A stretch of 64,000 nt of DNA, from the NCBI GenBank assembly GCA_964401385.1, contig CAYNYF010000007.1, positions 3,206 through 67,205 on the forward strand. Direction: 5' to 3'. This document shows positions 5,449 through 64,000 of the stretch, piece by piece. The translations under genes were made by a program, and so were the position numbers. This DNA comes from an uncultured Planctomycetaceae bacterium. GTDB lineage: Bacteria > Planctomycetota > Phycisphaerae > SM23-33. Under the pieces are notes generated by a model, which was not told the origin of the DNA, did no database searches, and saw only the letters and a list, made by a program, of their open reading frames with translations. Position 1 is the stretch's first letter. Each line of letters starts with the position of its first letter.

Positions 5449-8400
5449 ATGACGCGGGCTGCGACAGAAAACGGGCAGTTGCTGGCCCCGATCGAGGCGA
5501 AGCTGCGCCGGCTGATCTGGCGGGCGCGGGCGGCCATCGCCCTCCGCGGGGCGCTGGCGACGCTGGCGGCGGCATCTCTGGCGATGCTGGTCACCGTGGT
5601 CATCGCCGTCCGATGGCCCTTCTTCGAGGCCTGGCAGCAGTATGCCCTGACTTGCCTATGGGTGGGCGCGGGCCTGGGCGCCGCGTTCGTGATGCTCGTC
5701 CGCCCCCTGGCTAGGAGCTTCTCCCTGGCCGGCATCGCCCGCGTCGTGGAGCAGCACCACCCGGAGCTGCACGAGCGCATCAGCTCCACCGTGGAACTGC
5801 TCCACAGCTCCGACGCCCCGGAAATCCGCGGCTCCGAAGCCCTCATTCACGCCCTGGCGACCGAGGCCGGACAGGACGCCCGCAGCGTCCGCCCGCGGCG
5901 CGAGGTCACCTTCCGCAGGGCGCGCCCGTTCCTGATCGCCCTGGCCGCGGTGGGCGCGGTCATCGTCGTGCTGTGCGCCACCTCCCGCGGCATGCGCAAC
6001 GAATTCGCCAAGCGGCTGCTGCCGTTCCTGAACCTGCCCAACTTCCACGCCGGCGACCTGATCATCAGCCCCGGCGTCGACCGCACGGTGCTGGCGGGCG
6101 AGCGGTTGGAGGTGACGGTCTCCCTGACCAAGGGCAAGGCCGCCAAGGCCCGCTGGGCGGAGGTGCACGTCGCCCGCCCGGAAGGCGGGCACCAGGTCGT
6201 CCGGATGAACCTGCTGCCCGGCCCCGTCGGCGGCATCGAAGGCGGGGGCGCCCGGCCGGAGAAGACCTTCGCCTACACCACGCCGCCGCTGCAGAAGTCG
6301 ATGCGCTACCGCGTCCGCGTGGGCGACGCCCGCAGCCGGTACTACCAGGCGACGGTCGAGCCGCGCCCGGCGGCGGCCGGCATCGAGGTGGCGTACGACT
6401 ACCCCGACTACCTCGGGCGGGAAGACCTGCCGCCCACGCCCGGCACGGGCCGGCTGGAGGCGCCGGTCGGGACCGTGGCGACCGTGCGCGTGCGGCTGAA
6501 CAAGCCGGTGGCCGCCGCCGAGCTGTTCGTCAACGACGGCCCCGCCGAGCTGACGCGCCTGGGCGAGAGCGAGTACAGCTTCGTGCAGGCGCTGTCCCGC
6601 CCCTCCGCCGGGAGCTGGCGGCTGGTGCTGACCGACGCCCACGGCTACACCGGCGAAGCCGGCGGCCAGATCGCCGCCATTGCCGACGCGGCGCCGGCCG
6701 CCCGCATCGTCAGCCCCGTCGAGGACAAGCTGAAGCTCAAGCCGGCCGACCGGCTGCCCATCGGCTACACCGTCTACGACGAGATCGGCCTGGACCGGGC
6801 CGAGCTGGTCGTCGCCATCGACGGCGGCGCCGAGAGGGCGATGCCCGTTCCCATGCGCAAGGCCGCCACCGGCCCCGCCGCCCACCCCGGCGAGCTGGAG
6901 ACCGTGCTGAACCTGACGGAGCTGGAGCTGTCCTCGGCACGCAAGATCACCTTCCAGCTCCGCGCCTGGGATAACCGCCCCGACGCGCTCGGCGGCGCCC
7001 AGGAGGGCGTCTCCGCGCAGAAGACCATCGAGCTGGACGTCAAGGCGCCCGGCTACGTCTTCCAGGTGCAGATGGCGCTGGACCTGCGCGTCCGCCAGAC
7101 GCTGGAGCGGATCTACCAGGAGCTGACCGAGGCCAAGAAGCTCTCCGAGCCGCTGCGGCGGTCCATGCCCGCCACGAAGAAGCTCACCGACAAGACCGTC
7201 GCCAAGATCAAGCAGATGCGGCAGCACCTGGTCACGGCCGAGCAGGACACCCGCGCCCTGGCCGAGGTCACCGCCGGCAGCGCATACCCGACACTGTCGC
7301 AGACGCTCAGCAAGCTCGCCGACGCCAACATCGCCAAGGCGGTGGACAGCTCCGAGCTGATCGTCGTCACCGACAATCAGAAGGCACGGGCCGAACAGGC
7401 CGACGAGGCCGACTTCCAGATCGACCGGGCGTTGGCGATCGTCTCCGACCTGCTGAAGAAGTTCGACGTCCTGACGGAGCTGGCCCGGCGGGCGATCGCC
7501 CTGCAAGAGCTGGCCGAGCGGCAGGAGGCGCTGGCCGCGGCCAAGCTGGCTGAGGCCACCACGCAGCCGGCGACCGCCCCGGCCGGCGGGGACGACTCGG
7601 CCGGCGCCATGAGCGGCGAGGAATGGGAAAGGGCACAGGAGCAGGTCGCCCGCGACACCGGCCAGCTTGTCCGCCAGACACCCAACGCCCTGCACGAGTC
7701 CCTCGGCCGCAACCAGCAGCGCAGCCGCGACCTGGCGGAGATGGCCGAGCGGCTCCAGCGGCGGCAGCAGGCGCTGCTCCAGCACACCGCCGCCGCCGAA
7801 GCCGTCCGGCAGACGCAGCAGCAGCTCCGGCAGCTCGCCGCGGAGCAGGCCACCCTCGCCGGGCAGATCGGCCAGCTCGCCCAGCAGGCCCGACCGGTGC
7901 CGCCGTCGGTCGAGCCCACGACACAGGCCGCCCACCAGGCGCAGGCCGCCGCCGGGGCCCTGACCACCACGCAGCCGGCGACGGCGCTTCCCATGCAGAC
8001 CGCCGCCGAGCAGGCCCTCGCCCAGACCGCCCAGCAGGCACAGGCCGAACTCCAGCGTCACGCCGCCGCCGAACTGGCCGCCGCGGCCGAGCGAATGGCC
8101 GACCAGCAGGCACAGCTCGCGCAGCGTTCCGAGTCGGCGGCGCCGCATCAGCAGACCGCCCAAGCCGCCCAGCAGGCCGCCGCCCAGGCCACCGCCCGCC
8201 AGCGCCAGGTGCTGGCGCAAGTGGGCGGGCGCCTGGCCGGGCTGGCGCGGCGTCAGGCGGCCCTGGCCCAGCGGGCAGGGCAACTCGAGCAGCCGACGAG
8301 CCCGCCGGCGCCGGCTCGCCCCGCGCAGGCCATGCAGCAGGCCGCCACGAGCCTCCGCCAGGGCGACCCCGCGTCCGCGGCCGCCCAGGCCGCCCGTGCC

Positions 8401-11400
8401 GGCGGACAGTCCCAGCAGCTAGCCGGCGAACTTGCCCGGCGCGCCGCGGCCGCCCCGCAGGCTGCGCAGCAGGCCGAACAGCGCGCCCAGCAGGCCGCCG
8501 CCCAAGCCCAACAGGCTGCCCAGCGCGCCCAGAAGGCGGCACAGGCCGCCGCCCAGGCCCAGCAGCAATCCGCCGCCGCCGCACAACGTGCCCAGCAGGC
8601 CCAGGCCACCACCCAGCAGACCGGCGCCGCCGCCGCCCAGCAGGCCGCCGCCCAAGCCCAACAGGCCGCCCAGCGCGCCCAGCAGGCCGCACAGGCCGCC
8701 CAGAAGCAATCACAGCAGGCCCAGCAGGCATCGCAGGCCGCCGCCCAAGCGGCCCAGCAGGCCCGCGGGCAGGTCCAGCCCGCACAGCAGCACTCGGCCG
8801 CCGCTGGGAAACTCGCCCAGGAGCAGGCGCAACTGGCGCGGGAGATCGCCGCGGCCGCAGCCCGCGAGGCGCCGCAGGCTGCCCAGGCCCAGGCCGCCGG
8901 ACAACAGGCCGCCGCCCAGCAGGCCCAGGCGGCCAAGCAGACTCGCCAGGCCGCCCAGCAGCTCCAAGGCGCCCCCCAGGCCCAGCAGCAGCTAGCCAAG
9001 CAGGTGCCGCAACTGAAGCGCCTGGCCGCGAAGGCCGACCGGCAGGTGCAGACGGCGATGCGGCAGCACGACCCGACGGCCGGCATGCAGCGGGCCGCCG
9101 CGGAGCTTTCCCGCAGCCGCGCCGCCCGTGCCGCCCCGTCGCAGAGGACGGCCGAGCAGCAACTCCACCGGATCGCCGAGGCCGCCCGGGAGCAGTTGGC
9201 TCGGACGGACCCCCAGCGGGCGGCCCAGCAACTGGCGGCCGCGGCCGAGCGCATGGCCCGCCGGCAGGAGCAGCTCGCCGGAGAGTCCGGCGAGGCCGTC
9301 CGGCAACAGCAGGCCGGCCAAGCCGCCCAGCGCACGTCCGAGCAGCAGCAGCAAAGGCAGCGACAGATCGTGGGACAGATCGCCGGCAGGCAGGCTCCCT
9401 TGGCGGGCCGGCAGGAGGCCCTGGCCAAGCAGGCGGGCCAGCTCGAGCAGGCGGCCGCGGCCAGCCAGCAGGCGCGTCCGGCGCGGGCAATGCAGCAGGC
9501 GGCCGAGCAACTGCGGAAGGCCAGCCCGCAGGCGGCCGCGCCCCATGCCCAGCAGGCGGCCCAGCAGGCCGAGCGCATGGCCGGAGAGTTGGCCCAGCGT
9601 TCGGCCGCGGCCGAGAAGGCGTCGCAGGGCGCGGCGGAGCGGTCGAAGGCTCAGCCGGCAGACCAGGCCGCCGCCCAGACCGCTCGCCAGGCCATGGCCC
9701 GGGCCCAGCAGGCCTCGCGTCAGGCCGATGCCGCCCGGCAGCTCGCCCGTCGGCAGGCGGAGCTGGCCAGGCAAGCCGCCCAGGCAGCCGCCGCCGAGGC
9801 GCCCCACGCCGCCCAGGCCCAACAGGCGCAGCAGCAGGCCGCCGCCGACGCCGCCCAGGCCGCCCACGCAGGCCAGCAGGCCGCGCGACAGGCGCAGGCC
9901 ACCGCCGGCCGACAGCGGCAGCTCACCGACCAGGTGGGGCAGTTGAGCCGGCTGGCCCAGCAGGCCACCCCCGCCGCCCAGGCGGCCATGCGCCAGCACA
10001 ACCCGACCGCCAACATGCAGCGGGCGGCGGGCGAGCTGGCCCAGAGCCGGCCCGCCCAGGCCCAGCCGGCCCAGCAGGCGGCGGCGCGGCAGCTTCGCCA
10101 GATCGCCCAGGCGGCCCGGCAGCAGGTCGACCCCACCCGCCCCACGGAGGCAACCCAGATCGCGCGGTCCGCGGCGTCCCTCGCCCAGCAGCAGCAGCGG
10201 CTGCGGGCGCGGGCCGCCGAGCTGACCGGCCAGCTCGCCCGCGGGCAGAACCAACTGGATCGGCAGGAGCTGACGCGCCTCCAGGCCGCCCAGCAGCAGA
10301 TCGCGCGCGAGGCGGCCGAGCTGTCCGACGACGTCCGCCAGCAGGCCCCGCAGGCCGACCGCATCGACACGCAGGCCGCCCGCGCCGCGGCGGAGGCGCT
10401 GCGTCGGCTGGGCGGGCGGCAGCTCGCGGCCGCGGCCGAGTCGGGACACCGAGCCGCCAACCTGATGAATGAAATGGAGCGGCGCCTCGGCCGGCCGGAG
10501 GAAGGCGGCGGCGAAGAGTCAGGCCAGCGTGGTGAAGAATCCGGGCAAGGTGGTGAAGAGTCCGGACACGCCGGCCAAGAGTCCGGGCACGGCGGCCAAG
10601 AGTCCGGGCACGGCGGCCAAGAGTCCGGGCACGGCGGGCAGGATTCCGGTCAGGGCTCCGGTCAGCCCGGACAGGGCCGGTCCGGACAGGTCCAGGCGGC
10701 CACGCCGTCCGGACAGGAGCCCGACCAGGTCGCCGCCGAGCAAGGGCCCACCGCCGCCGAGCGCCGGGCCGAACTAGCCGAGCAGGCCGGCGACCTCGCC
10801 GGCAGGCAGCAGCGCGTCGCCGACGAGGCCGCGGCCCTGGCCGGGCGGCGGCGAGGGCAACTGCTGGCCAGCAGGCAGCAGCAGATCGGCGAAGGCACCG
10901 CCGACCTCCAGCAGGGGGCGGAGCTGATCAACGATCACATCCGGGACCTGCTGCCGGATGCCACCGCCAGGCAACTGGCCCGGCAGGCGACCGGCGCCCT
11001 TCAGCAGGCGGCCGCCGCGCAATCGTCGGCCGAGCGGGCGATGAGCGCCGGTCAGCCGGGGCAGTCCATGCAACCGCAGCAGGGATCGGCCGCGGGCCTG
11101 GGCCGGGCCGCCGGGGCCCTCCGCCGGCTCGGGCAGCGGCTCTCCGAACAGGCCAGGCGGGCCCGGCAGCGGCCGCCGGAAGGTGAAGACGCCCTCCCCG
11201 GCGAGCTGGCCGAGGCCTACGACGCGGCCCGCTCGGCCTCCCAGAGCCGGCAGCTTTCCGACGCGGCCATGGCCGCCCGACTGATGGCACAACTGGCCGC
11301 CGGGACGATCCGCCGGGCGATGTCCATGGGGGTGATGCCGATGGCCGGCTGGCCCAACCAGAGCCCCGAGGGCATGGCGCTCAGCTCCAACGCCCGGGTG

Positions 11401-11622
11401 GGGGCGGCCCTGCCCGACCTGACCGCGCCGCAACTGGCGAAGCTGGGCATCACGCTGGAAGACTGGGCGCGGCTGCCGGGGCAGTTGCGGGACCAGGTCC
11501 TCCAGTCGGCCCGGCTGGGCGGGCCGGAGGAGTATCGCGGGCTGATCAAGCGATACTTCCAGGCCATCGCCAGACTCAGCGCCGAGAAGGAAACCTCCCC
11601 GCAGGAGCCGAAGAAGAAATGA
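5449..11622 (+). CDS. giant (2057 aa) membrane-anchored protein with beta-rich N-terminal region and about 1400 aa Gln/Ala-rich coiled-coil/low-complexity region; hypothetical
   Basis: Single long ORF. N-terminal TM segments (ALATLAAASLAMLVTVVIAV, CLWVGAGLGAAFVMLV). Extensive AQQAAQ-type repeats. Internal duplicated segments around 9000-9130 and 9930-10060 (QV.QL.RLA....Q.AMRQH.PTA.MQRAA.EL). ESGHGGQ tandem repeats. The stop overlaps the start of the downstream gene. Confidence 0.8.
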   Translation: MTRAATENGQLLAPIEAKLRRLIWRARAAIALRGALATLAAASLAMLVTVVIAVRWPFFEAWQQYALTCLWVGAGLGAAFVMLVRPLARSFSLAGIARVVEQHHPELHERISSTVELLHSSDAPEIRGSEALIHALATEAGQDARSVRPRREVTFRRARPFLIALAAVGAVIVVLCATSRGMRNEFAKRLLPFLNLPNFHAGDLIISPGVDRTVLAGERLEVTVSLTKGKAAKARWAEVHVARPEGGHQVVRMNLLPGPVGGIEGGGARPEKTFAYTTPPLQKSMRYRVRVGDARSRYYQATVEPRPAAAGIEVAYDYPDYLGREDLPPTPGTGRLEAPVGTVATVRVRLNKPVAAAELFVNDGPAELTRLGESEYSFVQALSRPSAGSWRLVLTDAHGYTGEAGGQIAAIADAAPAARIVSPVEDKLKLKPADRLPIGYTVYDEIGLDRAELVVAIDGGAERAMPVPMRKAATGPAAHPGELETVLNLTELELSSARKITFQLRAWDNRPDALGGAQEGVSAQKTIELDVKAPGYVFQVQMALDLRVRQTLERIYQELTEAKKLSEPLRRSMPATKKLTDKTVAKIKQMRQHLVTAEQDTRALAEVTAGSAYPTLSQTLSKLADANIAKAVDSSELIVVTDNQKARAEQADEADFQIDRALAIVSDLLKKFDVLTELARRAIALQELAERQEALAAAKLAEATTQPATAPAGGDDSAGAMSGEEWERAQEQVARDTGQLVRQTPNALHESLGRNQQRSRDLAEMAERLQRRQQALLQHTAAAEAVRQTQQQLRQLAAEQATLAGQIGQLAQQARPVPPSVEPTTQAAHQAQAAAGALTTTQPATALPMQTAAEQALAQTAQQAQAELQRHAAAELAAAAERMADQQAQLAQRSESAAPHQQTAQAAQQAAAQATARQRQVLAQVGGRLAGLARRQAALAQRAGQLEQPTSPPAPARPAQAMQQAATSLRQGDPASAAAQAARAGGQSQQLAGELARRAAAAPQAAQQAEQRAQQAAAQAQQAAQRAQKAAQAAAQAQQQSAAAAQRAQQAQATTQQTGAAAAQQAAAQAQQAAQRAQQAAQAAQKQSQQAQQASQAAAQAAQQARGQVQPAQQHSAAAGKLAQEQAQLAREIAAAAAREAPQAAQAQAAGQQAAAQQAQAAKQTRQAAQQLQGAPQAQQQLAKQVPQLKRLAAKADRQVQTAMRQHDPTAGMQRAAAELSRSRAARAAPSQRTAEQQLHRIAEAAREQLARTDPQRAAQQLAAAAERMARRQEQLAGESGEAVRQQQAGQAAQRTSEQQQQRQRQIVGQIAGRQAPLAGRQEALAKQAGQLEQAAAASQQARPARAMQQAAEQLRKASPQAAAPHAQQAAQQAERMAGELAQRSAAAEKASQGAAERSKAQPADQAAAQTARQAMARAQQASRQADAARQLARRQAELARQAAQAAAAEAPHAAQAQQAQQQAAADAAQAAHAGQQAARQAQATAGRQRQLTDQVGQLSRLAQQATPAAQAAMRQHNPTANMQRAAGELAQSRPAQAQPAQQAAARQLRQIAQAARQQVDPTRPTEATQIARSAASLAQQQQRLRARAAELTGQLARGQNQLDRQELTRLQAAQQQIAREAAELSDDVRQQAPQADRIDTQAARAAAEALRRLGGRQLAAAAESGHRAANLMNEMERRLGRPEEGGGEESGQRGEESGQGGEESGHAGQESGHGGQESGHGGQESGHGGQDSGQGSGQPGQGRSGQVQAATPSGQEPDQVAAEQGPTAAERRAELAEQAGDLAGRQQRVADEAAALAGRRRGQLLASRQQQIGEGTADLQQGAELINDHIRDLLPDATARQLARQATGALQQAAAAQSSAERAMSAGQPGQSMQPQQGSAAGLGRAAGALRRLGQRLSEQARRARQRPPEGEDALPGELAEAYDAARSASQSRQLSDAAMAARLMAQLAAGTIRRAMSMGVMPMAGWPNQSPEGMALSSNARVGAALPDLTAPQLAKLGITLEDWARLPGQLRDQVLQSARLGGPEEYRGLIKRYFQAIARLSAEKETSPQEPKKK
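8495..8705 (+). repeat. two near-identical about 60-bp segments 150 bp apart inside the giant gene (encode QAAAQAQQAAQRAQ.AAQAA)
   Basis: gccgcccaagcccaacaggc(t/c)gcccagcgcgcccag(aa/ca)ggc(g/c)gcacaggccgcc occurs at about 8495 and about 8645. Confidence 0.7.
10507..10650 (+). repeat. 24-bp tandem repeat array (about 6 units) encoding E-S-G-(H/Q)-G-G-(Q/E) repeats inside the giant gene
   Basis: Visible tandem units ggccaagagtccgggcacggc x3, flanked by degenerate units (gaagagtcaggccagcgtggt, gaagaatccgggcaaggtggt, ...). Confidence 0.8.
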
Positions 11623-19775: not shown

Positions 19776-22700
19776 GGTGCTTGGCGTAGTGGCAGATCTG
19801 GCGATACGGGCACCACTTCGGGCAGTCGCCGCCCGGCAGGGCGTCGAACCGCCCGGCCCGCATGCCCTGCACGCATCGCCCGACGGCGTTCATCGCAAAG
19901 GCCAGCTTCTCGGGGTATTCCGCATCCTCCTTAATCCGCCCGCGGGACACTCCGACACTGGCGAAATAGCGCTGGGCGTTCTCGCGCACGCCGTGATACG
20001 CCCCGCCGGCGCACGCCCGATCGAAGATCGCCTCCAGTGCCTCGGCGTACAGGGCAAGCTGGAGGTCGCGCCCGCTGAGGATGTCCTTGCCGGCCGGCAA
20101 GCGCCCGGACTTGTAGTCCACCGCCAGCAGGGCCGCGTCCGGTGCGACCTGATCGACGCGGTCGATCTTTCCTTCCAGGCGGATCCGCTCGCCGCCGGCG
20201 TCCAGCTCGACCGGCTCGGGCCTGCTGGCCGGGTCCATCCGCCCGGCCCGCCGCTGGGTGAGGCCGAAGCCCAGCTCGAAGCAGACCGCCTCGGTCGGCA
20301 AGACCGCCTGCCGCTGATCGGCCAGGTACGCCCACAGCATTTCCCGCCAGAATCCGGTCTGGACGTCCCACAAGGCCGAGTACATCGCCCTGTCGGCCAG
20401 CCGGCGCCTCTCGGCCTCGACGGCCTCGGCCAGCAGGGCCCGCAGCTCGCCCTCGTCGGTCTCGGCGAGCTTCACCGGCCCGCCGGCCCGCTCGCGCAGC
20501 GAGGTCATCACCCGCCACAGCACCGCGTGGCAGAAGCTGCCCATCGCCGCCGGCGTCATCCGCGCCTCCGGCTCCACCAGCGGCTCCAGGTGCAGCAGAT
20601 GCCGGGCGAAAAACTGCCAGGGGCAGCGGGCGTAGCTGTTGAGCTGGCTGGCGGAGAAGGTCCACTTGGCGGGAATTCGCTCGCCAAGCCCGGCCAGCAG
20701 CTTCGGATCGTCCAGCCGCCCGTCGAAGGCGTCGACCTCGCCCGCCCGCCAGCGGCGGTCGGCGGCGAAGATGCCGAAGCTGGCGCGGCGCAGCCATTCA
20801 GGGCGGTGCCGCCGGGCCCAGCCCAACAGCGCCGCCGGGCGATACTTGGCCTCCGCCTCGTCGCTGAAGGCGGCGAAGACGGCGGCGTTGAAGGCGTCGG
20901 CCGGCGAGGAAAGCTCATCCGGCGGCGGCACGAACTCGCCCGGGCCGATCCGCTCGCGCCGGCAGGGGGCGCCTTGGCGCTCGCCGGTGGAGGCCAGTTC
21001 CTCCAGGAAGCTGCTGGCGGCATGCGGCCGGCCGGACGCCTCGGCCGTCAGGAAGCTGACGGTCAGGGCCTCGTCGGCCCGCGTCGCCGCCAGGTAGAAC
21101 AGCAGCATCTCCCGGGCGATCAGGTCGCTGCGGCTATCCAAAGCCACGCCGCGGGCGGCCCACGCCAACCGGTCGGACTCGGCGATGAAGCACGTCTCCT
21201 GCGCCAGCCGCGGAAACGCCCGCTCGTTCACCCCGAGCAGATACACCCGCCGGAAGCGCAGCGACCGCCCGTCCAGCACGTCCAGGACTTCGGCAAGCGA
21301 TTCGGCGCGGGCCGGCGGGCAGACGGCCGCCTCGGCCAGGCGCGAGACCAGCTCGGTCAGCTCCTCCGCGCGGCTTCGCCCGGCCGGGGAGAGCGGGGCC
21401 TCCGTCAGGTCCTCCAGCAGCTCGTCGAACGCCCGCAGGGCCCGGAGGTCCGCGGCCACGGACGCGTCGTCCTCGACACCGACCGCGGGCGACTCATCCG
21501 AAATTCGGAGCCTTTCCACCACGGCCGCGGGGAGCTGTAGCTCGCCGATCAGCTCGCGGACGGCCCGGACGTACGCGCCGACGTCCTCGGGCGCGGCCAG
21601 CCGATCCAGCCGCGCCATCAGTGCCGCCAGCATCGCCCCGGCCCGCTCGATGGCTTCGGCGTCGGCGGACAGCGGACCCAAGGCCACCGTCTCCTCGTCC
21701 TCGGCGAACTCCTCGCCGCCGCTTCGCGCGCGATCGGCCAGCCGCCGGAACGCCCGCGAATACTCCGTCCGCCCGCCCAGGACGTTGGCCGTGCGGATGG
21801 CCATCTCCGCCGTCGCCACCGTTGCCGCGTCCAGGCCGGCTCCCAGAGCGCCCGGGCGGAAGTAGCTGTTCCGGATCACCGCCAGCACGTCGTGGAACGC
21901 ATACGCCGGCGGCAGCGACAGCAGCCGCAGGATGAACCGCACCACCCCGCAGGCGTCCAGCCGCGTCGGGCGCGAGGCGACGGGCACGTCGTGGGCGGCA
22001 AAGATCCGCCGAATCGGCTCTTCGTAGCCGCTCAGGTCCCGCGCCATCACCGCGACGGACCCGGGCTCGGCGCCGCCGGCCAGATCGGCCTTGACCGCGC
22101 GGGCGACGGCGCGGACCTCGGCCTCCACGTCGGCTGCGGCCAGGACGGTCACCGAAATCGCGGGCCCGCCCGTCGCGGCCGCGGCGCTTGCCGGCTCGGA
22201 GGCACGCGCTCGCCCTTTCTTGCCGCCGGGCAGGTCAAAGAGGCTCTCGAACGGATCGCCGCCGGGCTCGGCGGCCGTGACTTCCGAGCCGGGAATCGCC
22301 CGGCGAATCCGCTGGAGCGTCCGCTCCGTCCAGAACCACATGCGCCGGCGCCGCGGCTGGGCGGCGAACGGCAGCGTGATGAGCATGCTGTCCACGCGCC
22401 GGGCCAGCAGCGAGAGGATCTCCAACTGCGTCGGGGTGAAGTCGGTGAAGCCGTCGACGCCCACGGCCGCGATGGCGGGATAGCCCAACGGGGCGCCCTC
22501 GTCGCGGGCGAGCACGTCGCGGGCCAGCCACATCAGCCCCTCTACGTCGAAGCGCTCGGCCTTCCGCAGTTGGTCCTGATAGCGCCGATACACGCTCAGC
22601 AGGTCGGCGTCCTTGCCGCTGGACGGGTCGATGGCCTTTGCCAGCGCCTCCGGCTCCACGGCCGCCCGCTTGAGTTCGGCGATGGCCGCGTCCAACGCCG

Positions 22701-57045: not shown

Positions 57046-57603
57046 GTGATCTCCGTGGGTGAGCCCTCGCACAACGCAGAGAGAAAGATCAACATTCACG
57101 CCCCCTGGCGAATCGAATACATCCGCACCCTCGACGATCGGCAGGACGGGTGCTTCCTCTGCCGCGCCCGCGACGAGACCGACCGGGAGGAGGACAACCT
57201 CCTGCTCTGGCGGACCGGCAAGTGCCTGGTGGTGATGAACAAATTCCCTTACACCGGCGGGCACCTGCTGATCGCCCCGTCCGAGCACGTCGGCTCCATG
57301 GACCACCTCGACGGGGAGGTGATGCGGGAGTTGATGGAACTCACGCGCGACTGCCTGAAGCTGCTGAGCCGCACCATCCGCGCCGGGGGCTTCAACATCG
57401 GCATCAACATCGGGCGCTGTGCCGGGGCGGGGCTGCCGGATCACCTGCACCTGCACGTCGTGCCGCGATGGAGCGGCGACACGAACTTCATGGCCGTGCT
57501 CGGGGACGTGCGGATTATTCCTCAAAGCCTGAAAGACTTGCGCCGACAACTGCTCCGGGCCGGCCAGGAACTGAAACTGCCGAGCGCAGTGTATGGCCGA
57601 TGA
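57046..57603 (+). CDS. HIT family hydrolase (histidine triad protein)
   Basis: APWRIEYI N-terminal motif, CFLC, and histidine triad HLHLHVVPR. GTG start at 57046 (or 57055) chosen because the upstream part of the ORF overlaps the SH3 gene. Stop overlaps the dgt start. Confidence 0.7.
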   Translation: MISVGEPSHNAERKINIHAPWRIEYIRTLDDRQDGCFLCRARDETDREEDNLLLWRTGKCLVVMNKFPYTGGHLLIAPSEHVGSMDHLDGEVMRELMELTRDCLKLLSRTIRAGGFNIGINIGRCAGAGLPDHLHLHVVPRWSGDTNFMAVLGDVRIIPQSLKDLRRQLLRAGQELKLPSAVYGR

Positions 57604-58744
57604 GATTTCAAGAGACCCTCTCGCCGGTCAGGAAAGCCAACTGATCGGCTGCGCCCTGCGCGTGGCCGACAGCGGCGGCCGGAAGCACCCCGAGGCCGAG
57701 CACCCCTACCGAAGCTGCTACCAGCGCGACCGCGACCGGATCATACACTGCTCCGCCTTCCGCCGGCTGGACTACAAGACGCAGGTCTTCGTCCCGCACG
57801 AGGACGACCATCACCGCACGCGGCTGACCCACACCCTGGAGGTCGCCCAGATCGGCCGGACCCTGGCGCGGGCGATCGGCGCCAACGAAGACGTGGCCGA
57901 GGCGGTCGCGCTGGCGCACGACCTGGGGCACCCGCCCTTCGGCCATGCCGGCGAGGCGGCCCTGGATAAGCTGATGGCCGATCACGGGCGCTTCGAGCAC
58001 AACCTTCAGACGCTGCGGGTGGTGGACTACCTGGAGCGGCCCTACCCCGACTTTCACGGCCTGAACCTGACAAACGCCGTCCGCTGCTGCCTGGAGCGGC
58101 GCGGGAGGCGACCGGACGGGCCGGCGGCCGCGGCCGCCGACAACGCCCCCCAGGCGCCGCTGGAGGGCCAATTGGTCGAGCTGGCCGACGACATTGCCTA
58201 CACCTCGGCCGACCTGTACGACGCCCTGGCGGCGGGGTGGATCGACCTCGACCAGCTCGGCGAGCTGCCGCTGTGGCGGCGGGCGTGGGAGATGGCGGCG
58301 GCGGCGATGCCGTCGGCCCACACGATCCACAAACGCATCCGGGCCTGCCGCAACGTCCTGGCCGTCGCCTGCGACGACGTGATCGACCAGACGCGCCGGC
58401 AGATCGGGGAGATGCGGCTCGCCTCCCCGGCCGACGTGCAGTCGGCGGCTCGACGATGCGCCGCCTTCAGCCCCGAGCTGGCGCCGCAGGTCGACCAAAT
58501 GGGGCGGTTCCTGCTGGAGAAAGTCTACCGCCACCCGGTCGCGCTGGGCCACGACGCCGAGGCGGGGCGGATCATCGCCGACCTGTTCGGGGCGTATCTG
58601 GCCTCGCCGTCACTGCTGCCCGCCCGCTATCGCCGCCGGATCGACAGCGAAGGGCCCCACCGCGTCGCCTGCGACTACATCGCCGGCATGACCGACCGCT
58701 TTTGCCGAAAGGAACTTGCCCGCATAGCCGCGGACCGGCCATAG
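57593..58744 (+). CDS. dgt: deoxyguanosinetriphosphate triphosphohydrolase-like protein (HD domain)
   Basis: HD motif HTLEV...AHDLGHPPFGHAGE. DDIAYTSADL. C-terminal DYIAGMTDRF. 383 aa. Confidence 0.85.
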   Translation: MADEISRDPLAGQESQLIGCALRVADSGGRKHPEAEHPYRSCYQRDRDRIIHCSAFRRLDYKTQVFVPHEDDHHRTRLTHTLEVAQIGRTLARAIGANEDVAEAVALAHDLGHPPFGHAGEAALDKLMADHGRFEHNLQTLRVVDYLERPYPDFHGLNLTNAVRCCLERRGRRPDGPAAAAADNAPQAPLEGQLVELADDIAYTSADLYDALAAGWIDLDQLGELPLWRRAWEMAAAAMPSAHTIHKRIRACRNVLAVACDDVIDQTRRQIGEMRLASPADVQSAARRCAAFSPELAPQVDQMGRFLLEKVYRHPVALGHDAEAGRIIADLFGAYLASPSLLPARYRRRIDSEGPHRVACDYIAGMTDRFCRKELARIAADRP

Positions 58745-59541
58745 CCGGCGAGGCGGCCCTGGATAAGCTGATGGCCGATCACGGGCGCTTCGAGCACAAC
58801 CTTCAGACGCTGCGGGTGGTGGACTACCTGGAGCGGCCCTACCCCGACTTTCACGGCCTGAACCTGACAAACGCCGTCCGCTGCTGCCTGGAGCGGCGCG
58901 GGAGGCGACCGGACGGGCCGGCGGCCGCGGCCGCCGACAACGCCCCCCAGGCGCCGCTGGAGGGCCAATTGGTCGAGCTGGCCGACGACATTGCCTACAC
59001 CTCGGCCGACCTGTACGACGCCCTGGCGGCGGGGTGGATCGACCTCGACCAGCTCGGCGAGCTGCCGCTGTGGCGGCGGGCGTGGGAGATGGCGGCGGCG
59101 GCGATGCCGTCGGCCCACACGATCCACAAACGCATCCGGGCCTGCCGCAACGTCCTGGCCGTCGCCTGCGACGACGTGATCGACCAGACGCGCCGGCAGA
59201 TCGGGGAGATGCGGCTCGCCTCCCCGGCCGACGTGCAGTCGGCGGCTCGACGATGCGCCGCCTTCAGCCCCGAGCTGGCGCCGCAGGTCGACCAAATGGG
59301 GCGGTTCCTGCTGGAGAAAGTCTACCGCCACCCGGTCGCGCTGGGCCACGACGCCGAGGCGGGGCGGATCATCGCCGACCTGTTCGGGGCGTATCTGGCC
59401 TCGCCGTCACTGCTGCCCGCCCGCTATCGCCGCCGGATCGACAGCGAAGGGCCCCACCGCGTCGCCTGCGACTACATCGCCGGCATGACCGACCGCTTTT
59501 GCCGAAAGGAACTTGCCCGCATAGCCGCGGACCGGCCATAG
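58745..59541 (+). pseudogene. exact tandem duplicate of the 3' 797 bp of dgt (C-terminal 265 codons, no start, different frame)
   Basis: nt 57947-58743 are repeated identically at 58744-59540. Identical ORF fragments appear twice in the six-frame track (for example 57608..58552 and 58675..59349 minus; 58194..58382 and 58991..59179 plus). Confidence 0.6.
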
Positions 59542-59623
59542 CCGGCACGCCCGAGCCCGCGCAAAAGAACGCGGCGGCCCATGACGGACCGCCGCGGAAG
59601 ACGTCGCTGCCGGCCAAGCCGGC

Positions 59624-61441
59624 TTATTCGGATTTCTTCTCGCCGCCTTCTTCCTCGCCAGGCTCTTCCTCGGCCGGCGCTTCTTCGGCCGGCGCTTCTT
59701 CGGCGGGCGCTTCTTCGGCCGGTTGCTCCTCGGGGGGCGCTTCGGCCTCTTCGATCTCTTCAACGTAGACGTCGTCCAGGTCCGTGGCGTCGACCTTCTG
59801 ACGCAGGATGAAGTAGATGTTCGTGGCGGCCGAGAAGACAAAGCACGCCAGGAACGCCAACACCACCGCGCTGACCAGATACACCCACAACATCAGGATC
59901 GTCGCAGCGACCGCCTCGGAGCCGTTCATGGCCTCCCACTGCATCGGCCCATGGAACTGGCTGAAGGTCGGCTGGGCCCACATGACGTCCAGCTTGCCGC
60001 CCCCGGTGGCGTACTCCGGCCGGGCGTCGGCCCGCATCCACCATCCCGCCCAGTGATGAACCGTCCGCAGCGAGATGAAGGCGAACAGCCGCACGAACAG
60101 GTAGCAGATCGTCCCGTATACCGCCGCCGCCAGCCAGTAAAACCCGTAGCGGAACGGCCGGGCGAAGACGTAGCTGAAGGACCGGCTCAAGGCGTCGAAG
60201 CCGTCGGAGCCCTCCACCGCGATGGTCGGCCACATCAGCGGCGACCCGCCGACCAGGCCGATCGTCAGGAACGCGCAGATCAGCCCGGCCAGCAACGGCA
60301 GGAAGAACAGGAGGGCGAACAGCCACTCGCCCACCCATGGAATGGCCCCGACCAGGCCGGCCAGGGCGATGCAGAAGCCCAGGAATATGATGAATCCGAG
60401 CGGCAGCAGCGGCGCCCCGAAGAAGCTCAGGAACTTGGAAAGGCTGAACTTCACCGCCGCCACCATCGAGATCTTTTCCTCGCGAGCGGCGTGCAAGGCG
60501 GCAATGCGGCAGATCGCCCCGCCCAGCAGCGCCCACAGCGCCAGGGCAACCACAACGTAGATGATCGTATACACCGGGTACATCCAGAACATCCAGGATA
60601 CGCCCCAGGCCATCAGCATCAGCCAAGCCAGCAGCCCGTACCTCTCCGGATCCTGGACGGCCCCGGCCTCGACGAAGTCGGGCCGATTCTGCCTGGCCCG
60701 CGCGCCGTATCCGACCGGCGTCATCGAGCCGTGATTCCGATACAGAAGCCCGACCCCGGCCGTGAACCGTGCCCGCGTCACCGCGGAGAAGGCATTGGCA
60801 AGGCAATACCCCTGCCAATCCAGGAAGCTGGCGAAGATCCGCCCCCCCCGGATCCCGCTCAGACTGGCCTTGCGCTGGATATATTCGGTCAGCGCGGTCC
60901 GCTTACCCGCCAGCAGGACCTCCTTGGCCTCTTCCTTCTTCTCCTCCCGGGTTTTGGCGGCCGCATCCTCCTTTCCAATCTGCTTTACCCGCTCCGAGTA
61001 GGCCTTATCGGCGTCCTCGACGGCGGCTTCGTAAGCCTTGCGGCTGCCTTCGCCGACCAGCTCGAAGACCTCCTCAAAGTCCTTCTTGGCCGTCATCCCC
61101 TCCTCCAGCTTCACGAAGTCCGTGAGCTGCCCAACCATTCCCTGCAACGCGAAGACTCGGGTTTCCTCGCGCCAAGTCTTTTTGGCTTCCAGGAATGCGC
61201 TCCGGCTGGGGGCAGTCCACAGGGCCCAGGCCTCGTTCCTCGGCACACGGTTGGTCTCGGAGGCGCCCGACCATATCGGGTCCATGACGACCCGCCCTAT
61301 GGCCCAGGTCAGGGCGATCGCCAGCAAGGCCAGCAGCAGCTTGCTGGGATGGACCGCCATTTTGAAGCTCTTGAAGATCTGAGGAAAACTGAAGACCTCG
61401 TTCCAGCTAACCTTTCGCAACGCCTGCTGTTCGTCGGCCAT
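59624..61441 (-). CDS. polytopic integral membrane protein with acidic Glu/Ala/Pro-rich C-terminal tail; hypothetical
   Basis: 605 aa, at least 8 hydrophobic helices. Amphipathic or coiled N-terminal region. C-terminal EEAPAEEAPAEEAPAEEEPGEEEGGEKKSE. Confidence 0.7.
   Translation of the reverse strand: MADEQQALRKVSWNEVFSFPQIFKSFKMAVHPSKLLLALLAIALTWAIGRVVMDPIWSGASETNRVPRNEAWALWTAPSRSAFLEAKKTWREETRVFALQGMVGQLTDFVKLEEGMTAKKDFEEVFELVGEGSRKAYEAAVEDADKAYSERVKQIGKEDAAAKTREEKKEEAKEVLLAGKRTALTEYIQRKASLSGIRGGRIFASFLDWQGYCLANAFSAVTRARFTAGVGLLYRNHGSMTPVGYGARARQNRPDFVEAGAVQDPERYGLLAWLMLMAWGVSWMFWMYPVYTIIYVVVALALWALLGGAICRIAALHAAREEKISMVAAVKFSLSKFLSFFGAPLLPLGFIIFLGFCIALAGLVGAIPWVGEWLFALLFFLPLLAGLICAFLTIGLVGGSPLMWPTIAVEGSDGFDALSRSFSYVFARPFRYGFYWLAAAVYGTICYLFVRLFAFISLRTVHHWAGWWMRADARPEYATGGGKLDVMWAQPTFSQFHGPMQWEAMNGSEAVAATILMLWVYLVSAVVLAFLACFVFSAATNIYFILRQKVDATDLDDVYVEEIEEAEAPPEEQPAEEAPAEEAPAEEAPAEEEPGEEEGGEKKSE
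59671..59730 (-). repeat. 15-bp tandem repeats (x4) encoding EEAPA repeats
   Basis: cggccggcgcttctt x2, cggcgggcgcttctt, cggccggttgctcct. Confidence 0.7.
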
Positions 61442-61813
61442 GACAATTCCTTTCGATTGCGATTCAGCCGGCCGGGGAGCCCGCTCCTCATAACAAGCCC
61501 CACGCCACCCCTCGATGTTGGCGGAGGCAAGCCACCTTATGATCGCCGCGAATTATAGCCTTTCTCGGACGGCATGCAATCAATTTTCGAATGAAAGTCG
61601 CCGCCGGACAGACACCTAAGTACTACAACGCCACGAAGGCTCAAGAGAATCTATGCCGCAAGCCGGTGGCGTCTTCCAGGAACCCGATTCCTGGAAGGAG
61701 ACAAGGCGTGGACGCCAACACGATTCTCAAGGTTAGCAGCCCGTGGAGAAAGGCCTCTTGAGACGCACGGTATGGTAATCCTTGAAGCGGTCAAGGAGGA
61801 CGCGCACGTGGCG

Positions 61814-62250
61814 ATGGGCAAGCGGGCGAGGGAACGGCAGCCGGAGCTGTGGGTGGCGGTAACCGAGATGCCCCAGGCCCCGGGGCATCCTTTCTGTCGG
61901 AAGCTGAATGGACTGCCGGGAGAGCACGGCTTCGACGGGTTTGTGGAGGGGGCCGTGTCAGCCGTTCTGCCACGATTGACCGGCCCGGCCGAGCATTCCG
62001 CCTGGGGTGTACTTCCGCATGCTGCTGATCGGCTACTTCGAGGGGATCGACTCGGAGCGTGGGATCGCCTGGGGTTGCACGGATAGTCTGACGCTTCGGG
62101 AGTTCCCGGGCTGCGGCCTGAAGGAATCGACCCCCGACCATTGCAGCCTGAGCAGGATCCGTCAGCGTCTGGCCGTGGAGACGCACGAGGAGGTCTTCAC
62201 CTGGGTTCTCAAGCGTCTGGCCGAGACGGGCCTGAACCTCCGCGGCCTCT
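61814..62250 (+). mobile_element. IS5/IS1182-family transposase remnant (N-terminal about 150 aa, frameshifted and 3'-truncated; DUF772-type N-terminal domain)
   Basis: MGKRARERQPELWVAVTEMPQAPGHPFCRKLNGLPGEHGFDGFVE (frame A), then after a frameshift near 62000, YFRMLLIGYFEGIDSERGIAWGCTDSLTLREF (frame B). This is the hallmark N-terminus of IS5-group transposases. No DDE domain follows. Confidence 0.65.
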
Positions 62251-62255
62251 CGGCA

Positions 62256-62335
62256 CACGTCCTGCCCGGGAAGTTCACGCTCTACCTCGCCCTGCACTCC
62301 GCCGCCGAGGCCAACAAGGCCGTGAAGGCGATGTG
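62256..62335. repeat. direct repeat R1 (about 80 bp), left flank of DUF4160/DUF2442 module
   Basis: cacgtcctgcccgggaagttcacgctctacctcgccctgcactccgccgccgaggccaacaaggccgtgaaggcgatgtg. About 88 percent identical to R2. Confidence 0.6.
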
Positions 62336-62454
62336 ACGGCGCCGCTTTCGCGCCTGTTTGCCCCGAGCGCTGCTGGCCCTCACCCTCAGGGGCGAACGGA
62401 GTGGAGCAAGACCCACGCCGTTGGCAAGGCTTTCGGTTGTCGGGTAGCCGACGC

Positions 62455-62468
62455 GGGAGTATAATCTA
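62455..62468 (+). promoter_or_regulatory. GGGAGTATAATCTA (-10-like) immediately upstream of the DUF4160 GTG start
   Basis: TATAAT at 62460-62465. Same 14-mer as upstream of paralog gene 1. Confidence 0.3.
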
Positions 62469-62471
62469 TCT

Positions 62472-62708
62472 GTGCCCACGGCCTTCAGAGCAAAGGGCTA
62501 CCGGTTCTTCTTTTTCAGCTTGGAAGGATCGGAACGCCTCCACGTTCACGTCGAGAAGGCGGGGGCGTACGCCAAGTTTTGGCTGGAGCCGGTGTCGCTG
62601 GCAAGAAACCGGGGCTTCCGCAGCCACGAGTTGACCGAGATCAGGAAACTCGTCGAGGCGAACCGGGCGATGCTTGAGGAGAAGTGGGATGAGCATCTCG
62701 GACATTAG
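62472..62708 (+). CDS. DUF4160 family protein (toxin-antitoxin-like pair, first gene)
   Basis: 78 aa, GTG start. YRFFFFSLEGSERLHVHVEKAG...AKFWLEP is characteristic of DUF4160. Overlaps the downstream DUF2442 gene. Confidence 0.7.
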   Translation: MPTAFRAKGYRFFFFSLEGSERLHVHVEKAGAYAKFWLEPVSLARNRGFRSHELTEIRKLVEANRAMLEEKWDEHLGH

Positions 62709-62931
62709 GATAGAGCCGCTCGCCACGAGCGTGTCTTTCTCTGCCGATTCCCTCACTGTGGTTCTGGCCGACGGGCGTGAGATCACTGCGCCCCTGGAGT
62801 GGTTCCCGCGTCTCCGCGACGCCGACAATGAGCAGCGGCAGCAGTGGCGCCTGATCGGCGGCGGCGTGGGGATTCATTGGGAGGCCGTTGACGAAGATAT
62901 CTCCGTCGAAAGCCTGCTGTCCTTGGGATGA
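62689..62931 (+). CDS. DUF2442 family protein (second gene of pair)
   Basis: MSISDIRIEPLATSVSFSADSLTVVLADGREITAPLEWFPRLRDA...WRLIGGGVGIHWEAVDEDISVESLL is characteristic of DUF2442. 20-bp overlap with the DUF4160 gene. Confidence 0.7.
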   Translation: MSISDIRIEPLATSVSFSADSLTVVLADGREITAPLEWFPRLRDADNEQRQQWRLIGGGVGIHWEAVDEDISVESLLSLG

Positions 62932-62944
62932 CGGGTCGCCGGGG

Positions 62945-63033
62945 CCTGATCGCCCACGTCCTCGGCGGGAAGTTCACACTCTACCTCGCCCTGGACCCCG
63001 CCGCCGAGGCCAACAAGGCCGTAAAGCCGATGT
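62945..63033. repeat. direct repeat R2 (about 89 bp), right flank of DUF4160/DUF2442 module
   Basis: cacgtcctcggcgggaagttcacactctacctcgccctggaccccgccgccgaggccaacaaggccgtaaagccgatgtgg. Confidence 0.6.
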
Positions 63034-63196
63034 GGCGACGGCTCCCCCGCGCAACGTAGGGCGGGTACGCCTGCCCGCGGAGCCGTAGGGCAGGGAGACT
63101 TCCCTGCCCAATGCGCCCGGATGTTGGCTTCCGTGCCGGGCGCTCACGCAGACAAGGCGGGTGGCAGGCATTTTCCCCACCCTTTGAAGAGAGTCT

Positions 63197-64000
63197 TCAC
63201 TTCATCTTCCCTTGGGTTACCTCAAGACCGTCTCTGTAGACGAAGGGTATCGTGTAACTTTTCGAGCCGTTGCGCTTCACCTCCAGGCTCAGAACACCAA
63301 CCGACACTAGGTCATCGACGACAGATTGCCAGTTCGTTCCGAGAATTGCGCCCATTGCACTTGCAGTGTACTCCGCCTTGCCCTTGACGAACTTCTTAAT
63401 GAACGTCCACAGGTGCGGGAACTCTGCTTCCAGGTACGTCTCCCGCTTACGCTTTGAAAGTTCTTTCAGCCCGTATCGGATAGCTGCAGCTCCGATTATT
63501 TCAGCAGAGGTGCCCGACGGGTTAGCGTTGAAATCGTCCTGCTGGCGCTGCTTCGCCTTGGTGAGCAAATCTATGACGTCGCGCGGGGTGACAACTCCCT
63601 TTCCGTCTTGGGTGTGGGTGTAGATCCAGCGCAGCGTGGGGCTCTGGCGTGACCCACGGTGAACTGTCTTCGGGAAGACTCGGTAGAAGAGCTCCTCGCG
63701 GTAGGCTTGATTAGCCTCCAGTCGTGCTGTCTCAACGCTCAGGTACGAGGCTAAATCGCGGCACGCGAATAGTCTCTTTACAATCATCGTCAAGATTTGG
63801 TTTTCGGACCATTTCAGGGTGTCAGCCTGCCTCGCCGTGACGTGCGTCAGGGCGGTAAATCCGTTCCCTTCGGCAACTATTTGCTCAAGTATGTCATCGC
63901 GCAAGAATACTTTGACTCTTATCTGCTTCGATTCAAATATGCGCAGTGTCCTGAGAAGAGCGCGGAGGGCACGGGTCTCAACAGCGGAACGACGTGGGAA
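63197..64000 (-). CDS. hypothetical protein, low-GC (about 50 percent), 5' end beyond window edge
   Basis: The minus-strand frame is open from 63197 to the end of the window. The TTG called as start at 63904 is internal. Composition differs markedly from the rest of the window. No family recognised. Confidence 0.6.
   Translation of the reverse strand, partial: FPRRSAVETRALRALLRTLRIFESKQIRVKVFLRDDILEQIVAEGNGFTALTHVTARQADTLKWSENQILTMIVKRLFACRDLASYLSVETARLEANQAYREELFYRVFPKTVHRGSRQSPTLRWIYTHTQDGKGVVTPRDVIDLLTKAKQRQQDDFNANPSGTSAEIIGAAAIRYGLKELSKRKRETYLEAEFPHLWTFIKKFVKGKAEYTASAMGAILGTNWQSVVDDLVSVGVLSLEVKRNGSKSYTIPFVYRDGLEVTQGKMK

Follow-up and report, generated by a model that had tools for sequence, protein, structure and literature searches.

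The last 2.5 kb of a 64-kb planctomycete window: a transposase remnant, a DhiTA-type toxin–antitoxin cassette and part of a low-GC Sll1717-family ATPase gene

RESULTS

Three known modules make up the end of the window

We analyzed a 64,000-nt stretch of DNA from an uncultured Planctomycetaceae bacterium (contig CAYNYF010000007.1, positions 3,206 to 67,205; hereafter the window), focusing on its end, nt 61442–64000. The original prediction, made from the letters alone, regarded this end as an accessory, mobile-element-associated stretch. That description is correct: the stretch is ordinary DNA of this kind, with an insertion sequence (IS) pseudogene, a toxin–antitoxin (TA) cassette and a compositionally foreign gene whose family has links to defence candidates (Table 1). 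The final 2.5 kb is probably a decayed, horizontally acquired patch, in which three unrelated modules, each already known, lie side by side. These modules are a broken transposase gene, an intact DhiTA-type TA pair and the C-terminal half of a low-GC Sll1717-family ATPase, and none of them is a new kind of system.

Base composition sets the ATPase gene apart. The mean guanine plus cytosine (GC) content of the window is 68.9%, and that of the ATPase gene is 54.4%, or 14.5 points lower. No other 804-nt stretch of the window has a lower value, which lies 3.9 standard deviations (SD) below the mean. GC at third codon positions is 0.65 in this gene versus 0.86 in a neighbouring core gene, and in tetranucleotide usage the gene lies at a distance of 0.62 from the remainder of the window, versus 0.34 ± 0.07 for stretches of equal size. 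A low-GC gene beginning at 63197 was thus rightly predicted, but it lies on the minus strand, and the earlier estimates of its GC content (∼50%) and of its distance from the mean (∼18 points) were too extreme. A 330-bp spacer of lower GC, also predicted, is present at the other end of the stretch.

Two features associated with genomic islands gave different outcomes. Atypical composition in the company of mobility genes was found, in the form of the ATPase gene (3.9 SD below mean GC) and the IS remnant. Insertion at a tRNA gene or attachment site with flanking direct repeats was not: a check for such sites had been proposed, and none flanks the stretch within the window, whose sole tRNA gene (Phe, 20830–20907) is 40 kb away. 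An Rfam search of 61300–64000 returned no match.

The low-GC gene matches the Sll1717 family of P-loop ATPases

The low-GC gene had been singled out as unrecognised. Its product can in fact be named: profile matches identify it as an Sll1717-family P-loop ATPase of ∼513 residues. The fragment encoded in the window passes the curated cut-off of NCBIfam model NF047389 (P-loop ATPase, Sll1717 family; 81.1 bits versus 75, model positions 207–436 of 454), and it matches the PADLOC model PDC-M28C at 1.1e-14 (model positions 193–377 of 480). Full-length relatives score 97–130 bits on NF047389, over nearly the whole model, and one matches PDC-M28C at 2.8e-16 (positions ∼160–400 of 480). Pfam gave no match for the fragment. 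A match to the NCBIfam model DS41_1_antiphage was disregarded, with an E-value of 0.034 and 13 bits versus a cut-off of 370. The fragment has 222 homologues, nearly all metagenomic and the best of them 65% identical, and a library-wide search with a relative yielded 877 clusters at 50% identity. Neither the genome nor the metagenome contig collections contained an exact 61-mer of the gene, and our literature search found no paper mentioning Sll1717 or PDC-M28.

Complete members of the family are nearly all 490–530 amino acids (aa) long, with a P-loop that begins near residue 45. The fragment aligns to residues 249–511 of a 513-aa relative (P0121), so the gene is expected to extend ∼248 codons past the window end. 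Full-length relatives carry a Walker A motif, GTKGSGKS, and a Walker B motif, hhhhDRLDE or LWLMxDRLDE. The fragment starts right after the Walker B position (between DRLDEI and FPRRS in relatives), and both motifs fall beyond nt 64000.

Is this gene still intact? One alternative holds that it is a dead remnant, and that the whole stretch is non-functional except for the TA pair. The gene does lie near a clearly decayed IS. Moreover, records exist for four proteins of the source contig (DUF4160, DUF2442, transposase fragment and membrane protein), whereas no recorded protein is >65% identical to the ATPase fragment; given the four recorded neighbours, the ATPase gene may be disrupted, or may simply be uncalled in the source record. 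Yet the frame is open for 267 codons, and the fragment keeps 37 of the 37 residues that are invariant in a 47-sequence alignment, along with nearly all near-invariant ones. It is also 57–65% identical to intact relatives over its full length, with a single 1-residue gap. With this degree of conservation, we consider a dead ATPase gene unlikely, though it is the alternative that fares best.

Fold, gene context and possible role of the ATPase

For a view of the fold, we used an AlphaFold model of a relative (P0033). Its mean predicted local distance difference test score is 76, with values >89 over most of the last 200 residues, and its parts are a P-loop core, a helical region and, at the C terminus, a winged helix. 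Comparison of this model with the PDB by Foldseek gave weak matches, all with E >1e-3, the top ones being Orc1/Cdc6, other AAA+ proteins, Apaf-1/CED-4 and BrxC. A PDB sequence search with a full-length relative found nothing. On the Pfam profile nSTAND1 (PF20703), full-length relatives score 15–20 bits versus a cut-off of 27.1, which P0101 alone reaches (27.4 bits). Going by the model, the ATPase would resemble a small STAND/Orc1-type nucleoside triphosphatase (NTPase) with a winged helix, and we do not file it as a member of the STAND family. Its proposed domain order would be NTPase core, helical lid and C-terminal winged helix, as in STAND and Orc1/Cdc6 proteins.

Gene context was compared at five loci of close homologues (L001–L004 and L006). 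They have no conserved neighbour, and a conserved partner gene for the ATPase was rejected on that ground. Neighbours include transposases, an Mrr-like nuclease, a type II methyltransferase, a trypsin-like protease and plain housekeeping genes. The Mrr_cat gene near the homologue in L001 (6047–7264) matches PDC-M58A and LmuA, and the trypsin-like gene directly upstream of the homologue in L004 (4826–5485) matches PADLOC RT-Protease_XI and PDC-M35A. In all five of these other loci, whatever the GC content of the host, the homologue is 4–13 GC points below its own locus. Low GC in the window, the GC gap elsewhere and the variety of neighbours together mark the ATPase gene as laterally acquired and of foreign origin. 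A search of viral contigs found no member of the family.

A conflict or defence role for the ATPase is plausible. It would work as a solitary conflict- or defence-type switch dependent on nucleoside triphosphate (NTP), with the winged helix as its nucleic-acid-binding part. No effector domain can be seen. In a bolder version of this idea, the Sll1717-family protein would by itself make up a single-gene anti-phage system: an NTPase of ∼510 residues that acts as a minimal STAND/Orc1-like switch, has a winged helix and lacks any recognisable effector or sensor-repeat domain. We regard this as improbable. If it were true, the mechanism would be new for STAND-type defences, one example being NTP-driven assembly on invading nucleic acid.

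The ATPase gene could instead close a multi-gene system, not yet described, that continues past nt 64000, for instance a PDC-M28-like A/B/C cassette, with the window ending at the edge of a larger defence island. The foreign GC content of the gene would suit such a setting, and IS remnants and TA cassettes typically accompany defence genes. The match to PDC-M28C points the same way, as the PDC candidates were drawn from genes lying within BREX, DISARM or type I restriction–modification loci (bioRxiv 10.1101/2024.01.29.577857). But this match spans just 40% of the PDC-M28C model, the five homologue loci share no neighbour on either flank, and the nine neighbours of homologues that were scanned gave no match to PDC-M28A or PDC-M28B. 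The uniform length of the family, ∼500 aa, is consistent with a stand-alone gene, and the source contig exceeds the window by only ∼7.7 kb. In light of these data, a larger island of this kind is quite improbable.

An intact DhiTA-type cassette

The predicted DUF4160/DUF2442 gene pair was confirmed, with both Pfam domains above their cut-offs. The toxin scores 65.7 bits on PF13711 (cut-off 23; 4.4e-18; profile positions 1–64 of 65), and the antitoxin 75.7 bits on PF10387 (cut-off 23.9; 3.2e-21). The toxin gene comes first and overlaps the antitoxin gene, on the same strand, by 20 nt. Exactly these proteins, of 78 and 80 aa, have been called and recorded on a 71,717-nt NCBI contig, evidently the one from which the window comes. 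The closest relatives of the cassette, ∼70% identical, have the same gene order and the same gene lengths; the layout with its 20-nt overlap is identical in L015–L019 and near-identical in L009–L014.

Such pairs have been characterised in other bacteria. In Dickeya dadantii 3937, the DUF4160/DUF2442 pair is DhiTA; its toxicity and neutralisation and the co-repression of its promoter were demonstrated in Dickeya and in E. coli, co-transcription was shown as well, and the reversed gene order has been described (PMC8198452). A plasmid-borne pair of Thermus thermophilus, described as a ‘persistence-enhancing module’, stabilises plasmids, and tolerance of its first gene requires the second (PMC12724237). 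A comparative study lists DUF4160 as an effector domain, usually with DUF2442 next to it (PMC12065111). Judged from the Pfam scores, the layout matching that of relatives and these characterised pairs, the genes in the window are an intact member of the known DhiTA family of type II TA systems. The TA-like cassette that had been ascribed to an accessory island is therefore a member of a validated TA family and nothing new.

A promoter-like site lies just upstream of the toxin gene, with a small palindrome, TCGGGTAGCCGA, in its spacer; the consensus match suggests that it functions as a promoter. By analogy with DhiTA, the cassette would serve as an addiction or stress module. The toxin would halt growth, the antitoxin would bind and neutralise the toxin, and the complex would repress its own promoter.

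Relatives of the cassette are surrounded by unrelated housekeeping genes, either adjoining an isocitrate-dehydrogenase-type gene or lying between two Mur ligase genes beside a HicB-like/DUF4258 pair. DNA similarity to these relatives is confined to the coding sequence, from start codon to stop codon. At L009–L012 (3092–4460), the DhiTA-like cassette comes directly after the HicB-like/DUF4258 pair and a 75-aa open reading frame (ORF), and these TA modules form a small cluster wedged between the two Mur ligase genes.

The transposase gene is broken

A frameshifted and truncated N-terminus of an IS5/IS1182-type transposase had been predicted, and a DUF772 match, a change of frame and stop codons all bear this out. 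Our tblastn query was a full-length 451-aa transposase from plasmid pDMC1 of Solidesulfovibrio magneticus; alignments to ten metagenomic relatives were also made. Residues 5–46 are encoded in frame +2 (61823–61948) and residues 49 to ∼161 in frame +3 (61956 to ∼62340). A single frameshift falls between 61948 and 61956, and in-frame stop codons occupy 61977–61979 and 62334–62336. The remaining 290 residues were not found anywhere in the window. The ORF at 62007–62336 contains the DUF772 domain (1.1e-13) and aligns to positions 57–133 of 488 of the NCBIfam IS1182 model, with 43.8 bits versus a cut-off of 270. A functional IS would have an intact ORF with a DDE domain; here, ∼residues 5–161 of 451 are left, interrupted by the frameshift and two stops, and no terminal inverted repeats were identified. 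By these marks, the transposase gene is that of a dead IS1182/IS5-like element.

The repeats around the cassette match one transposase segment

Near-identical direct repeats had been predicted on both sides of the cassette (62256–62335 and 62945–63033). They exist, within a longer pair of copies, A and B, that align over 114 nt, ungapped, with 81.6% identity (E = 5e-27) and few mismatches in the central ∼70 nt. The spacing from copy A to copy B is 699 nt, copy B starts 8 nt past the antitoxin stop codon, and the similarity ends at the identical right-hand nucleotide in both. The 53-nt core of the repeat occurs exactly twice in the window (0 occurrences expected by chance), so a genome-wide element of the repetitive extragenic palindromic or miniature inverted-repeat transposable element type was rejected. 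In the metagenome contigs searched, a 50-nt repeat pattern had no match.

Several results tie both copies to the transposase. A single tblastn piece continues through copy A, and copy B, translated in frame, gives the same peptide as the copy A segment. Both align to the conserved GL-LKGKTLGIDATTLEANAAMRSIVRR region of the ten transposase relatives, which includes an aspartate that we interpret as the first of the DDE catalytic residues. Copies A and B have in common ∼10 extra codons and an AAEANKAVK variant that occur in none of the ten relatives, and hence they are each other's closest relatives. These alignments indicate that the direct repeats are two diverged copies of one transposase coding segment. 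Other explanations of the repeats were tried and rejected. Attachment or target-site repeats do not fit, since by alignment both copies are internal transposase coding sequence. Nor is the repeat the C-terminal end of an internally deleted IS, because it aligns at ∼residues 137–163, contiguous with the N-terminal part. Finally, the transposase does not continue past copy B, where no similarity was seen in any frame.

Because the repeats are copies of the same transposase segment, the cassette would have arrived, or have been fixed, by duplication or recombination involving that segment. Three kinds of event come into question for this step: two copies of a single IS lineage may have recombined, insertion may have produced a long duplication, or a small circle may have integrated by a single crossover. 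With 18% of positions differing between the copies, a recent event is disfavoured. In one specific scenario, the cassette and one 114-nt copy would form a ∼700-bp mobile unit, integrated at the homologous transposase segment by single-crossover (Campbell-type) insertion of a small circle; it would account for the common end point of the repeats, and it suits their A-X-A′ geometry with 699-nt spacing and sharp, identical right-hand boundaries, the start of copy B 8 nt past the antitoxin stop and the derived features that A and B share with no database relative, but it is very improbable: no recombinase is present, the divergence of the copies is left unexplained, the repeat pattern was not seen in the metagenome contigs searched, and cassette relatives in other genomes have neither an adjacent transposase fragment nor conserved flanks.

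Other features of the window

The features at the end of the window are collected in Table 1. The hairpin between the antitoxin and ATPase genes appears in the centroid fold of both strands and has no T-run; it may be a bidirectional terminator.

Table 1. Features in and next to the accessory stretch, with positions in the 64,000-nt window
Feature	Position	Strand	Description
Sll1717-family P-loop ATPase gene (match)	63197–64000	minus	3′ 804 nt (267 codons + stop); stop codon 63197–63199; open to window end
DUF4160 gene, predicted DhiT-type toxin	62472–62708	plus	78 aa; GTG start; Pfam PF13711
DUF2442 gene, predicted DhiA-type antitoxin	62689–62931	plus	80 aa; ATG start; Pfam PF10387
Promoter-like site	62437–62465	plus	TTGTCG-17-TATAAT; 10/12 consensus matches; ends 7 nt before toxin start codon
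IS1182/IS5-like transposase pseudogene	61814–62336	plus	∼residues 1–161 of ∼451; DDE catalytic domain gone
Direct repeat copy A	62240–62353	plus	3′ end of transposase remnant; codes for ...RGLSAHVLPGKFTLYLALHSAAEANKAVKAM (stop) RR
Direct repeat copy B	62939–63052	plus	Isolated fragment of same transposase segment; codes for RGLIAHVLGGKFTLYLALDPAAEANKAVKPMWRR
Lower-GC spacer	61442–61771		330 nt between membrane-protein start and transposase remnant; 56.7% GC; no Rfam match
Hairpin (putative terminator)	63088–63109		Perfect 9-bp, GC-rich (GGGCAGGGA-GACT-TCCCTGCCC); between convergent antitoxin and ATPase genes; read from sequence
Membrane-protein gene	59624–61441	minus	605 codons; 61441 = start codon

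A membrane-protein gene borders the accessory stretch, as predicted, although 61441 is where this minus-strand gene starts, not where it ends. The 605-aa product has no Pfam family, and its C-terminal end bears acidic PAEEA repeats. Relatives at least 90% identical are found on four short metagenome contigs (P0513–P0516). Among GTDB representative genomes, the sole relative is 40% identical and comes from a Phycisphaerae metagenome-assembled genome (locus L007, 16–5007), where it is preceded by band-7-like, dnaJ-like, grpE-like and zinc-ribbon genes, labels that were read off N-terminal translations without a domain scan. These genes occupy the side corresponding to the accessory stretch, and none of them lies within the window. 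This comparison fits a disruption of gene order beside the membrane-protein gene, but it is weak evidence at such an evolutionary distance.

Two regions farther from the end of the window also drew attention. An ORF of 2057 codons (5449–11622, plus strand) reaches 78% GC, has an AT skew of +0.54 at 8–10 kb and contains degenerate 21- and 51-nt tandem repeats at 8451–8925 and 10506–10807; its sole Pfam match is a sub-threshold one to DUF4175. In the dGTPase-like region (57593–59768, plus strand), the ORF list gives one N-terminal translation for both 58237..59541 and 59034..59768, despite their different frames, and HD_assoc matches occur at two positions, in two overlapping ORFs of different frames.

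DISCUSSION

The end of the window can be pictured as three modules brought together. An IS1182/IS5-like element would have inserted beside the membrane-protein gene and then died, gaining a frameshift and stop codons and losing everything past ∼residue 161. A DhiTA-type cassette would have come to sit within the wrecked transposase gene, between the duplicated segments. A laterally acquired Sll1717-family ATPase gene, convergent with the cassette, would complete the patch.

Several observations weigh against this picture or parts of it. The window ends within the ATPase gene, and partner genes upstream of it are possible past nt 64000; as its missing protein record suggests, the gene may also be disrupted or uncalled. 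A defence role for the ATPase is weakly based, the PADLOC match being partial (193–377 of 480); no family member turned up in viral contigs, and in two of the five contexts the flanking genes are mostly housekeeping. The repeats pose a further difficulty: a recent duplication should have left more than 82% identity, yet the two copies stop at the same nucleotide, and neither two independent IS copies nor a fresh target duplication explains them cleanly.

What these data mean for new biology is limited. The TA family is validated, the IS is dead, and the ATPase family is one that NCBI has named and that PADLOC lists near a candidate. The gain is one of clarification: the bracketing repeats are debris of the transposase and not attachment sites, and the gene called ‘unrecognised’ can be assigned to a named family. 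The Sll1717 family itself is of interest, with ∼880 clusters of uniform ∼500-aa proteins encoded by solitary, lower-GC genes. If it does comprise defence genes, it would represent an unusually minimal STAND-like system.

Each module can be set beside known systems. The transposase remnant resembles IS1182/IS5-family elements with a DUF772 N-terminal domain, its N-terminal third being 50–66% identical to full-length relatives. It differs from them as a pseudogene, with a frameshift, stops and no DDE domain, and in having a second, isolated ∼100-nt fragment of the same region 699 nt downstream. The ATPase gene differs from members of the NF047389 family in that only the residues equivalent to ∼249–513 lie in the window. 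It is like PDC-M28, itself a candidate system, in its significant match to component C, whereas components A and B were not found beside its homologues. More distantly, the predicted fold is akin to those of STAND and Orc1/Cdc6-type AAA+ NTPases, such as NB-ARC proteins, Apaf-1/CED-4, archaeal SSO1545, RdrA of RADAR and BrxC of BREX.

The closest counterparts are those of the TA pair. Like DhiTA and the Thermus module, it has both Pfam domains, the toxin gene first, overlapping genes and products of similar sizes (78 and 80 aa), and here too a promoter-like site lies directly upstream. In contrast to those systems, the host is a Phycisphaerae-like planctomycete, the sequences are related at the family level only, and the cassette is embedded between two transposase gene fragments.

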